The translations under genes and the position numbers were made by a program. Shown piece after piece: positions 24,548-39,307 of a stretch of 64,000 bases of DNA. Numbering within the stretch: position 1 is the stretch's first letter; each line of letters begins with the position of its first letter. The DNA is from Acidobacteriota bacterium (GTDB lineage Bacteria > Acidobacteriota > UBA890 > WLXD01): assembly GCA_965248695.1 (NCBI GenBank), contig CBDFKD010000002.1, positions 5,056,001-5,120,000 on the forward strand. The letters run 5' to 3'. The notes beneath the pieces are model-generated. The model saw only the letters and a list, made by a program, of their open reading frames with translations. It ran no database searches and was not told where the DNA came from.

Positions 24548-24577
24548 CGAGTTGGCTCCGACAAGGGGAGACTAGCT

Positions 24578-24659
24578 GGCCTGCTGGGGCATCGGTGACG
24601 AGGCGCAACCCCGATATCGCCACCAGGATACGCAACGCTCATCTGTTACAGGCCACTAG
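24578..24659. repeat. truncated copy of the pheS-pheT nested element, fused to the dcd stop codon
   Basis: GGCCTGCTGG (inner-type end), then CATCG-GTGACG-A-GGCG-CAACCCCG-ATATCGCC (3' half of the hairpin module), then GGATACGCAACGCTCATCTGTTACAGGCCACTAG (outer TIR). Confidence 0.85.
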
Positions 24660-25213
24660 ATGCGGGGTGCTGTGATCCCGGTCTGCGCCTGATACTTGCC
24701 ACTACGGTCAGCATACGAGGTCTCACAAGCCGGGCTGCCCTCGAAGAACAGCAACTGCGCGATGCCCTCGTTGGCATAAATGCGCGCTGGCAGAGGGGTC
24801 GTATTGGAGATCTCCAGCGTCACGTGACCTTCCCACTCCGGTTCCAGCGGAGTGACGTTGGTGATGATGCCGCAGCGCGCGTATGTCGACTTTCCGACGC
24901 AAACCACCAGGACTTCGCGCGGTATGCGGAAGTACTCGAGCGACCGGGCGAGGGCGAACGAGTTGGGCGGGATGATGCACTCTGGCCCGCTGTACTCGAC
25001 CACCATCGAGTTGACGTCGAAGGACTTGGGATCGACGACCGTGCTGCGCACGTTCGTGAAGATCTGGAACTCCTCGGCGATGCGCAGGTCGTACCCGTAC
25101 GACGATACGCCGTAGGAAATGATTCCATCGGAGACCTGGGTTTCCTCGAACGGCTCGATCATGCGCTGCTCGACCGCCATCTTCCGGATCCACGTATCAG
25201 GCTTGATGCCCAT
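24656..25213 (-). CDS. dcd: dCTP deaminase
   Basis: [42 protein letters not shown]. Confidence 0.97.
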
Positions 25214-36696: not shown

Positions 36697-38742
36697 TCAG
36701 CGCCGCGCTGCCCCGACGGTCCGTTCGAGATGATCGACGAGGTGCTCATGGGCAGCCTCGATCTCTTCTGCGGTGAGAGTGCGGTCGTCGGCGCGGTAGG
36801 TCAACCGCAGCGTCGTCGCCAATCTCCCGGCCGGCACATCGTCGCCGCGGTAACGGTCCAGCAAGCGCAGCCCGACCAACGGAATCTCGATCAACGTGGC
36901 GACCTCGTCCGCGATCCGCCCGAAGGCCAGCTGGTCGTCGATGAGGATGGTGACGTCACGCTCGCTTGCCGGGTAGCGGGGCAGGGGATCGATCGAGAAT
37001 CCTGCCGCCTCGTGAGTCAACAGCGTCTCTATGTCGAGCTCGGCGACCCAAACGGCGCCGTCGACACCGAGCAACGTCGCAACCTCGGGGTCGACCTTGC
37101 CGGCTATTCCGCTGGCCAGGGCACCGACGCGTATGCGAGCCGCCGAGCCGGCTTGCAATCCCGGCACGTCGTCGGCAGACCATTCGATCGACGGCCATCG
37201 CATGCGGGTGCGCACGGTCTCCAACGCCCCCTTCAGCTCGCCGAAGCCGGTAGGCTGCTCCGAGGTCATGAAGTGGGCCTCGTCGGCGCTTCCGCTCGCC
37301 ACCAGGGCCAAGGCGCGGCGTTCGCGCGGCGGCGCGCCCTTGACGGCGTGGAACGTCCGGCCGACCTCGAACAGCCGGACGCGCCGGGCACCTCGGTTGC
37401 GGTTGCGCGCCACGGCGTCCAGCAGGCCGGGCAACATGCTTGTCCGCATGACGCCCATGGCTTCGGAGATCGGATTGGTGAGTGCCAGCGGTGTCTCGCG
37501 GTCGAGGAACGGCGCCTGGTCCGCGCCGCTGGTGAACACGAAGGTCATCGCCTCCCAGTAGCCGGCGGCAGCGCAAATGTCCTTGACGCGGCGCTCGTTG
37601 CGAAGCGCGTCGCTGGGACCGCGGCTGTCACGACGTCGTAACAGCGGCAGGGTGGCAGGGAGCTGATCGTAGCCGTGAAAGCGGGCAATCTCCTCGATCA
37701 GGTCCTCCTCGCGCGCGACGTCGACCCGGCGTGCGGGCACCACGATCTCGTAGCCATCATCGAGTGCGCTCACACCGAACCCCAGCGCGCCCAGAATGGC
37801 GCTCACGCGCTCTGCTGGTACCTCGACTCCGAGGTAGCCGCGAAGGCGTCGGGCACTGAGAACCAGGCGCCGATCTTCCGGGAGCGAGCCGACGACGTCG
37901 ATGCTGTCGGTGCTCACGGTGGCGCCGCCGAGCTCAGCGATCAGGTAACAGGCCCGGTTCACCGCTGCCGCAATTCCCTGGGGTGACATATCGCGCTCGA
38001 AACGGTGACTGGCGTCGGTGTGCAGACCCAGGCGCCTGGACATCCGGCGCACCGTGACGGGGTTGAAGTAGGCGCATTCAAGCAGTACCCGCTCGGTGGA
38101 TTCCGTGACCCCGGTATCGATGCCTCCCATGACCCCGGCGAGGCCCACCGCCCGGTTCGGGTCGGCGATCACGAGGTCTTCGGGCGTGAGCTTGCGCTCG
38201 ACTTCGTCGAGTGTGACGACGTGTTCGCCGTCGCGTGCCCAGCGAACGATGAGCTGGCCTTCGGTGAGCTTGTCGAGGTCGTAGGCGTGCATCGGACGTC
38301 CGAGCTCCCACATCACGAAGTTGGTCACGTCTACGACGTTGTTGATCGGTCGCAGGCCGATCGACTCCAATCGCTTGCACATCCACTCCGGGGAGGGGCC
38401 CACGTGGACGTCGAACATCGCCCGGGCGACGAAGCGCGGACACGCGATCTGGTCGTCCACTCGTACCCCGGCCGCGGAGGTGGTCGGTTCGCCCGCAGCA
38501 GCGAACTCGTCGGCCGGCTGTCGCAGATCGGTTCGCAGCGCGATCGCCAGCTCGCGCGCCAGGCCGAAGTGGTTGAGCACGTCGGGGCGGTTGCTCGGCA
38601 GATCCAGGTCCAGGCTCAGGTCGTCGCCTTCGGCGCGGGCATCATCCACCACGAGTCCGAGCATCGAGAGCCGCTCGGACAGAGCTGCGGTGGCCTCTGG
38701 AAGGTTCGCGTAGTCAGCGATCCAATTGCGGGAAAAGCGCAT
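36697..38742 (-). CDS. pheT: phenylalanine--tRNA ligase beta subunit (short form, 681 aa)
   Basis: MRFS.NWI..Y, NRPD...G.ARE, INNVVDVTNFVM, DAS.RFER, R.D...E.DLIEEIAR, NPIS, RD, RTLT. Confidence 0.97.
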   Translation of the reverse strand: MRFSRNWIADYANLPEATAALSERLSMLGLVVDDARAEGDDLSLDLDLPSNRPDVLNHFGLARELAIALRTDLRQPADEFAAAGEPTTSAAGVRVDDQIACPRFVARAMFDVHVGPSPEWMCKRLESIGLRPINNVVDVTNFVMWELGRPMHAYDLDKLTEGQLIVRWARDGEHVVTLDEVERKLTPEDLVIADPNRAVGLAGVMGGIDTGVTESTERVLLECAYFNPVTVRRMSRRLGLHTDASHRFERDMSPQGIAAAVNRACYLIAELGGATVSTDSIDVVGSLPEDRRLVLSARRLRGYLGVEVPAERVSAILGALGFGVSALDDGYEIVVPARRVDVAREEDLIEEIARFHGYDQLPATLPLLRRRDSRGPSDALRNERRVKDICAAAGYWEAMTFVFTSGADQAPFLDRETPLALTNPISEAMGVMRTSMLPGLLDAVARNRNRGARRVRLFEVGRTFHAVKGAPPRERRALALVASGSADEAHFMTSEQPTGFGELKGALETVRTRMRWPSIEWSADDVPGLQAGSAARIRVGALASGIAGKVDPEVATLLGVDGAVWVAELDIETLLTHEAAGFSIDPLPRYPASERDVTILIDDQLAFGRIADEVATLIEIPLVGLRLLDRYRGDDVPAGRLATTLRLTYRADDRTLTAEEIEAAHEHLVDHLERTVGAARR

Positions 38743-39307
38743 CTAGTGGCCTATAACAGATGATCATTGCCTATCGCAGATGGGATTTGCGCGTGAGATC
38801 AAGGCGCGGCGACGCAGTCGATGCTAGCAGGCCGAGGTGAAAGTGTGGTGGGTCTGGTTACGGCGAGTTGGGGCCAGATGCAAGGCGGCCTGACGCACAC
38901 GATGCCCTAGCCATCGTCGAGGAAGGCCAACGCCGCAGATGGCCCCAAATCGCTGTAACCCTTCGGGCGACTGGGGGTTGCGCGCGCAGGCTGCGTCGTT
39001 TGTCGTCAACGATGGGGTAACCATCGCCTCCTCCTCTCTCCTGGCCTGCGCCTCGCAAGACCCTGTCGCCAGACCCACCACACTTTCACCACGGCCTGCT
39101 CGGACATCATCGAGGAGCCGCAACGCCGATATCGCCCGCCATTGCCCATCTGTCCAGAGGCCAATCAGAACAACAGTGGCGAAATGGGGCCGTCTGCTCC
39201 GTTGCTCCTCTCTTGAACTTGGGCGAACATTGTCTCGTCGGATCGCCTGGCTTCCGGGCCCATTTCGTCACCACGATAGGCAACGATCATCTGTTACAGG
39301 CCACTAG
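38743..39307. mobile_element. non-autonomous MITE-like element with IS630-like termini, inserted at the pheS-pheT junction
   Basis: 34-bp inverted repeats at 38743-38776 and 39274-39307 (32/34 identical; CTAGTGGCCTRTAACAGATGATCRTTGCCTATCG). CTAG is present at both ends. No transposase is encoded. Confidence 0.88.
38828..39098. mobile_element. second MITE-like element nested inside the first
   Basis: Inverted repeats at 38826-38857 and 39069-39100 (31/32; AGCAGGCCGWGGTGAAAGTGTGGTGGGTCTGG). Flanked by CTAG (38824-38827) and CTCG (39099-39102). Confidence 0.85.

Follow-up and report, generated by a model that had tools for sequence, protein, structure and literature searches.

Two nested, apparently undescribed MITEs very probably form the 565-bp insert between pheS and pheT of an uncultured Acidobacteriota bacterium

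Results

The locus between pheS and pheT

We analysed a stretch of 64 kb, in the following called the window, with a G+C content of 65%. All coordinates are positions in this window, and L-numbers denote loci from other genomes which were fetched by the end of the inner element described below. Other than in the repeats themselves, no overlap between the window and the fetched loci was found. According to Pfam matches, the gene order on the minus strand includes thrS - infC - pheS - pheT, and a non-coding insert of 565 bp (38743-39307) fills exactly the gap from the pheS TAG to the pheT ATG. The features of the locus are as follows, with the strand where one is assigned:

36697-38742, minus strand: pheT, 681 aa (Pfam B3_4, B5, tRNA_synthFbeta and FDX-ACB)
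38743-38776: left inverted end of the outer element, 34 bp including CTAG at 38743-38746
38777-38823: 5' arm of outer hairpin 1, homologous to the hairpin module of the inner family (direct repeat D1, alignment, fold)
38824-38827: CTAG at the tip of outer hairpin 1, the target that holds the inner element
38828-39098, plus strand: inner element, 271 bp, with ends at 38828-38857 and 39069-39098
38856-38960: inner hairpin 1, with a loop CTAG at 38907-38910
About 38966-39068: inner hairpin 2 (fold)
39099-39102: CTCG, a decayed second copy of the CTAG target
39103-39155: 3' arm of outer hairpin 1 (direct repeat D2, alignment, fold)
39176-39271: outer hairpin 2, a second, inverted and diverged copy of the module (inverted repeats I4 and I6, alignment in reverse orientation, fold)
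39274-39307: right inverted end of the outer element, 34 bp including CTAG at 39304-39307, source of the pheS stop codon
39304-40377, minus strand: pheS, 357 aa (Pfam tRNA-synt_2d, 5.6e-95, and Phe_tRNA-synt_N; ORF list)

Of the two CTAGs at the borders of the outer element, one contains the pheS stop codon (TAG, 39306-39304 on the minus strand), and the other directly adjoins the pheT ATG (38742-38740). The minus strand thus reads ...TTCC-TAG, 557 nt, CTAG-ATG-CGC... The ATG at 38742 is the true start of pheT, since PheT and its E. coli counterpart align with each other over residues 1-35 of both. The 681-aa PheT encoded here is without the B2 (tRNA-binding OB-fold) domain, and from residue 39 on it aligns with the E. 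coli protein from residue 153 on.

As the empty site before the insertion we infer C-TAG-ATG. The outer element would have integrated in the CTAG that is made up of the last C of the pheS coding sequence and its TAG stop, just before the pheT ATG. Because CTAG is rebuilt on either side of the insert, the pheS stop and the pheT start are both intact, and the insertion within an essential operon therefore survives. Targeting of CTAG lets an element sit exactly on a stop codon while both neighbouring genes are undamaged. CTAG occurs 38 times in the window versus 206 times expected from base composition, and six of these 38 occurrences lie in the two elements.

Two elements with different ends and a common hairpin module

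The sequence-only reading had described an outer element with 34-bp terminal inverted repeats and, within it, a 271-bp element with unrelated ends, and both descriptions hold. Positions 38743-38776 and the reverse complement of 39274-39307 are identical in 32 of 34 nucleotides, with A/G mismatches at positions 11 and 24; the 20 letters printed in that reading for the outer repeat are those of the right arm. Without its guest, the outer element measures about 290 bp. The ends of the inner element, 30 bp long, match in 29 of 30 positions, bear no relation to the outer ends, and have CTAG as the left and CTCG as the right flank. Neither the outer-end nor the inner-end motif was present in 100 dinucleotide shuffles of the window. 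On the minus strand of the inner element, a purine tract is found together with an ATG (39024) and a 66-codon open frame, which closes at the TAG at 38826-38824.

The whole 565 nt fold with a predicted energy of -321 kcal/mol (z = -13.6 versus 100 shuffles). In the predicted fold, each element forms an end stem around two hairpins, which is the common layout proposed from the letters alone. The hairpin module is shared by both end types, as was also proposed: the global alignment of the outer and inner elements scores 47, compared with 6.7 +/- 3.4 for shuffled sequences (shuffles in the other orientation score 7.3 +/- 3.9). The similarity of the two elements is concentrated in this hairpin (alignment; repeats D1, D2 and I4), and in either element the CAAGG of the module follows the CTAG at a distance of 57 nt.

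The apical loop of outer hairpin 1 houses the inner element, in agreement with its earlier placement there, and removal of the inner element in silico leaves a CTAG at this point (GATG-CTAGGA-CATC). A CTAG landing site in the inner loop itself had likewise been pointed out. It lies within CCCTAGCC (38905-38912) at the tip of inner hairpin 1 and is found in at least 20 of 29 aligned rows, while CCCCGG takes its place in 7 of the 29; the loop has been reused as a target, as detailed below.

Copies of the inner family

A scan of 185,579 species-representative genomes for an exact 21-mer taken from the inner end found it at a minimum of 101 loci in at least 11 assemblies. Among the matches listed, 47 loci belong to CAXWPH01, 39 to CBDBHB01 and 15 to nine other assemblies. 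The 11 assemblies listed are labelled as Acidobacteriota or Acidobacteria (eight), Myxococcales (one) and uncultured bacterium (two). A search of the plasmid collection with the whole element (blastn in distant mode) gave no match.

The spacing of the inner-end pairs is mostly 271 bp (25 of the 40 pairs listed, duplicates included), with shorter classes of 161-226 bp, and the loci listed hold 43 unique full-length copies. The 28 unique copies of 270-272 bp from other genomes show 96.1-99.3% identity to their own consensus, to which the copy in the window is 94.3% identical. CTAG directly abuts 131 of 140 unique inner ends; the other nine differ from it mostly by one base. The flanking genes, as far as Pfam assigns them, are unrelated and have housekeeping and metabolic functions. 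The inner repeat therefore exists in many independent copies at unrelated loci, and the outer type likewise recurs. Such a pattern is typical of a non-autonomous transposon that was active recently, and its mobility is suggested by copy number and flanks. An enrichment of insertions at stop codons was not found (26 of 140 ends versus 59 of 307 background CTAGs); stop codons are hit because CTAG occurs there.

These copies bear on a further explanation, namely that the stretch is a REP/REPIN repeat spread by a RAYT (Y1) transposase, or else a locus-specific regulatory RNA of the pheST operon. It is extragenic, highly structured and situated inside an operon, as either would be, and the sequence-only reading had compared it to a REPIN/MITE hybrid. 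However, its units of 271-565 bp have inverted ends of 30-34 bp (CAGG... and TGGCC...) and a duplicated CTAG at their flanks, whereas REPs (PMC3733652) are palindromes of 20-40 bp with GTAG or CGTC heads. No Y1 transposase (Y1_Tnp) was detected among 242 ORFs, 44 from the window and 198 from the fetched loci. Rfam, searched in E-value mode, returned nothing above threshold; the only two matches, regarded as noise, were to MIR1437, whose gathering score of 168 lies far above their 28.3 and 25.1 bits. The occurrence of the same element at more than 100 unrelated loci argues against a regulator specific to pheST. We regard this explanation as highly improbable in both its forms, and a likeness to REPINs is not supported.

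Copies of the outer family

A second copy of the outer type lies in the window itself:

24572-24659: 88-bp deletion derivative of the outer family, with a third outer end at 24637-24659

A dCTP-deaminase-like gene (24656-25213, minus strand) takes its TAG from the right CTAG of this derivative. The derivative retains the junction of the inner right end with the outer right half, GGCCTG-CTGG-GGCATC, and it apparently arose by a deletion from one GGCCTG, in the outer left end, to another, in the inner right end. Both outer copies of the window have CTAG on either side. On the other side of the 88-bp copy lies an M17 leucyl aminopeptidase gene, with a Shine-Dalgarno sequence and an ATG 24 nt further on.

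At the fetched loci, we find a 304-bp outer copy (L018, 494-797) with 83% identity to the right part of the window's element over 206 nt, a composite outer copy (L075, 2071-2692) with 91.8% identity to the window's element in its left 85 nt, and a mini-palindrome of 38 bp, both CTAGs counted (L045, 2272-2309). Remnants are a partial copy in L007 and a solo end in L012. A truncated ORF of an IS110-family transposase (1458-2015, Transposase_20 domain only) also lies in L012 and stops at an inner-type end. The outer copies make up a second family, which is rarer than the inner one. Because all these loci were fetched by the inner end, the outer copies seen are biased toward association with the inner element; none among them lacks every inner remnant, and such copies may exist.

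Nesting and mosaic copies

Reuse of the loop CTAG is visible at two loci, L028 (1997-2358) and L073 (1850-2108). At each of them, the left half of a copy (consensus positions 1-88) meets another element, a full copy, exactly at the loop CTAG. Only a single junction is visible there, because the right half of the host is missing; this loss is what recombination between directly repeated right parts would leave after nesting in the same orientation. The homologous loop of the outer element is occupied in the window and in L075. Inside the composite outer element of L075 (2152-2310), a 51-bp unit of CTAG, inner end and 17 nt is present in 3-4 tandem copies, which may reflect the same process of nesting and recombination, repeated. 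At a density of about 0.9 CTAG per kb in these genomes, no special targeting is needed for a few percent of insertions to hit MITE loops.

The junctions of the composite are not confined to pheS/pheT. The left junction of the window, GATGCTAG followed by CAGGCCG, recurs in L075 as outer left part, GATG-CTAG and inner end. The right junction, that is inner right end, decayed CTAG, ACATC or GCATC and outer right half, is common to L018 and the 88-bp copy of the window. As the same outer/inner junctions are found at other loci, the composite has probably transposed as a unit on its outer ends, and the nesting is probably older than its presence at pheS/pheT instead of being local to it. Alternatively, the only internal CTAG of the outer element may have been hit repeatedly. 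Such independent hits have to be kept in mind because the nested inner parts of L018 and L075 belong to a different sub-type from that of the window.

A hybrid was found in L029 (1747-2026). In this element of 280 bp, the left end is a variant similar to the outer type and the right end is of the inner type; the shared hairpin module lies between them, and each side is bordered by CTAG. Our reading is that the outer and inner elements are diverged or recombined relatives, and not one cargo taken up by two unrelated transposase families.

The search for a partner transposase

Neither the 64-kb window nor the 336 kb of fetched loci yielded an autonomous element with ends of the outer or inner type. 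Pfam analysis of the 44 window ORFs and 198 locus ORFs showed no transposase of the IS630, IS5 (DDE_Tnp_1), IS1182 or Y1 type; the only transposases met in this set were fragments of IS256, IS3 and IS110. An IS3-type integrase is carried by L075. At 11-646, the window encodes the C-terminal part of a transposase of the IS256/Mutator family (Pfam E = 8e-42), which is unrelated to the MITE ends.

Pairs of inner ends that are more than 400 bp apart comprise only clusters of repeats and one unit of 1363 bp. In this unit (L046, 2001-3363; the same as L047, 659-2021), inverted inner ends with CTAG on both sides enclose only a threefold RidA/L-PSP gene. It could be a passenger-carrying element or just two solo ends. 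The RidA/L-PSP protein has a signal-like stretch at its N-terminus.

We also considered the 66-codon frame as a leftover of the N- or C-terminus of a transposase. A search for it among longer proteins gave five matches, all of which are gene models fused to copies of the element, and with the last 43 residues of the frame the protein search returned no match at E <= 10. The matches (P0001-P0005) are public gene models fused to MITE frames. Among such public models are a 443-aa protein whose first ~35 residues come from the element's ATG frame, and a 676-aa protein with sulfatase-modifying/lactamase fold that shows 96% identity to a MITE frame over 30% of the query.

These results have to be weighed with the central proposal of the sequence-only reading, one structured cargo mobilised by two transposase families, with IS630-type outer ends and IS5/IS1182-type inner ends. 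It is consistent with the unrelated sequences of the outer and inner ends around a homologous hairpin module, and with the 280-bp element of L029, which carries one end of each type (the outer one as a variant) between two CTAGs. Both routes have a precedent, IS630-type elements using the TA in CTAG and IS5-related ones the four nucleotides of CTAG (PMC2170065 and PMC3189936). On the other hand, the CTAG flanks are the same for both end types. Sibling transposases of one family fit this shared target, as well as the hybrids, at least as well. The family is not readable from the ends alone, and the window, the 198 locus ORFs and the protein searches provided no transposase. Moreover, hybrids and mosaics can arise from nesting and deletion, as in the half copies of L028 and L073 and the 88-bp copy of the window. 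Taken together, we consider a mobilisation by two families unlikely and prefer the reading of outer and inner elements as relatives.

Coding capacity and position relative to genes

The 66-codon frame, the only one of any length in the element, evolves neutrally. Of 59 distinct changes among the copies, 20 are synonymous versus 18.3 expected, and one new stop codon appears versus 2.1 expected. The frame is therefore rejected as a peptide gene. A promoter scan of the element gave no promoter-like site, and a terminator scan gave one terminator-like site versus 0.6 expected, which is not convincing.

Overall, the 43 unique full-length inner copies, which come from loci L004-L080, are balanced between the strands (23 plus, 20 minus). 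Next to genes, the picture is different in tests that used small samples and crude gene calls (longest ORF plus GC3 filter) and of which several were run: among the 14 genes whose start follows a full-length copy within about 100 nt, the purine-tract strand is the sense strand for 12 (p = 0.013), and where the CTAG of a copy doubles as the stop codon of one upstream ORF, 11 of 13 copies have this orientation (p = 0.022). In one of the two exceptions, L064, the ORF concerned overlaps a Pfam-supported gene on the other strand. The inner copy of the window obeys this rule. For genes that merely end within 100 nt, the ratio is 15 versus 10 and not significant. We take the orientation bias of inner copies beside genes as suggestive and only as a lead.

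In the predicted fold of the mRNA, the basal stem pairs the UAG of pheS with bases just 5' of the AUG of pheT. It is an attractive thought that this modelled stem, by re-joining the pheS stop and the pheT start, could keep up the translation of pheT. Together with the orientation bias, such pairing would allow the following explanation: the elements are of mobile origin, yet copies adjacent to genes are kept partly for a role in the mRNA, where a strong Shine-Dalgarno-like tract with its ATG and the stem that joins stop and start would keep the downstream gene, here pheT, translated. The purine tracts facing downstream genes (12/14), the common orientation of most stop-sharing copies (11/13), the window copy's agreement with the rule, and the predicted pairing all point in this direction. 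So does the sequence ahead of the pheT ATG, which contains nothing more Shine-Dalgarno-like than a weak AGG. The bias comes, however, from few cases, several tests and crude gene calls, and it is absent for genes ending within 100 nt. Furthermore, the 66-codon frame is conserved no more than by chance, the element is without a promoter-like site, and the inner frame stops 81 nt short of the pheT ATG instead of beside it. We therefore hold a retained mRNA role to be quite doubtful.

A wider scenario combines nesting and orientation. A set of MITEs that target CTAG and derive from one module with a CTAG in its loop would nest in itself, move as composites and, by recombination, give rise to half-copy arrays and to hybrids with an end of either type; its gene-adjacent copies would be filtered or used according to orientation, and the stem would let pheS-pheT bear the 561-nt insert. 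If this were true, the strand resembling a ribosome binding site would face the downstream gene, and this in an essential, translationally coupled pair such as pheS-pheT. At present, we find this scenario improbable as a whole.

Discussion

Implementing all observations, the 565-bp stretch is very probably a composite of two non-autonomous DNA transposons (MITEs), one nested in the other. Both elements would be moved in trans by one or more transposases encoded elsewhere, which would recognise the inverted ends and integrate at CTAG. On integration, either the TA within CTAG would be duplicated, in the manner of IS630/Tc1-mariner elements, or all four bases, as in some IS5-related elements. 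Because CTAG is a palindrome, duplications of 2 bp and 4 bp leave identical sequences: a TA duplication with ends G...C reads the same as a 4-bp duplication with ends CAGG...CCTG. The nine flanks other than CTAG look like point mutations and are uninformative on this point. At pheS/pheT, the composite would have been nested already on its arrival and carried in by the outer ends.

The repeat had been put forward as a possibly undescribed system. A literature search for the end sequences of either MITE type gave no match, and the literature on Acidobacteria and MITEs, judged by its abstracts, contains nothing on these elements; no paper treating MITEs together with IS630 and target-site duplication at CTAG came up, and Rfam has no match above threshold either. 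In this respect the suggestion stands, and we have before us two apparently undescribed MITE families, related and nested, in uncultured Acidobacteriota. As a new kind of system it does not stand: the families are ordinary in kind, and the present evidence does not show a new kind of mobile system.

Apart from classification, the elements are of practical relevance. Gene prediction in these genomes joins MITE frames to real genes, and the repeats are likely break points in short-read assemblies. If the orientation bias holds in complete genomes, they offer a tractable case for studying how structured repeats are tolerated in operons.

Comparison with known systems

The features that define a MITE are largely present. 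Both elements are short (271 bp and ~290 bp) and without a transposase or conserved coding capacity, the frame being neutral. Both have terminal inverted repeats (32/34 in the outer, 29/30 in the inner element). The flanking target-site duplication is constant, with 131 of 140 inner ends at CTAG and CTAG on both sides of the outer copies in the window. Copies are many and dispersed: the inner family occupies at least 101 loci in at least 11 assemblies, and the outer one is found twice in the window and in L018, L075, L045, L007 and L012. These are four of five features; the fifth would be a cognate autonomous IS with the same ends, of which none was found in the 64-kb window or the 336 kb of loci.

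The Correia elements (NEMIS/CREE) of Neisseria are high-copy MITEs of ~100-155 bp which form long hairpins and are often co-transcribed with their neighbours, and effects on the expression of downstream genes have been demonstrated for them experimentally. The elements described here resemble them in high copy number, in long hairpin folds and in a possible effect on the downstream gene. They differ in their ends and in the phylum, and an effect on expression is here suggested by the orientation bias alone.

With the REP/REPIN-RAYT system, our elements share an extragenic position, palindromic character and high copy number. Unit size, end structure and the duplicated CTAG flanks are different, and no Y1 transposase was found in the sampled DNA (for the system see PMC3733652).

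IS630 prefers the TA in 5'-CTAG-3', according to a title in the reference list of PMC2170065, and ISY100 duplicates TA, as stated in the same paper. The likeness to IS630/Tc1-mariner elements and their MITEs lies in CTAG as preferred target, rebuilt on both sides, and in short derivatives bounded by inverted repeats. A difference is that the defining TA duplication is here not separable from a 4-bp duplication; another is that a DDE_3-type transposase bounded by these ends did not turn up among the window and locus ORFs.

A close parallel in target choice is MITEPsy1 of Pseudomonas syringae pv. phaseolicola, which duplicates CTAG or YTAA and is thought to derive from ISPsy2, a member of the IS5 family (PMC3189936, also for what follows). 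MITEPsy1 is gammaproteobacterial, has 100 nt and 18-nt ends of unrelated sequence, and a candidate parent IS has been named for it, whereas the elements of this study come from Acidobacteriota, have no known parent, measure 271 and ~290 bp and contain two hairpin modules each. Common to MITEPsy1 and the present elements is that they are small, non-coding and bounded by terminal inverted repeats.
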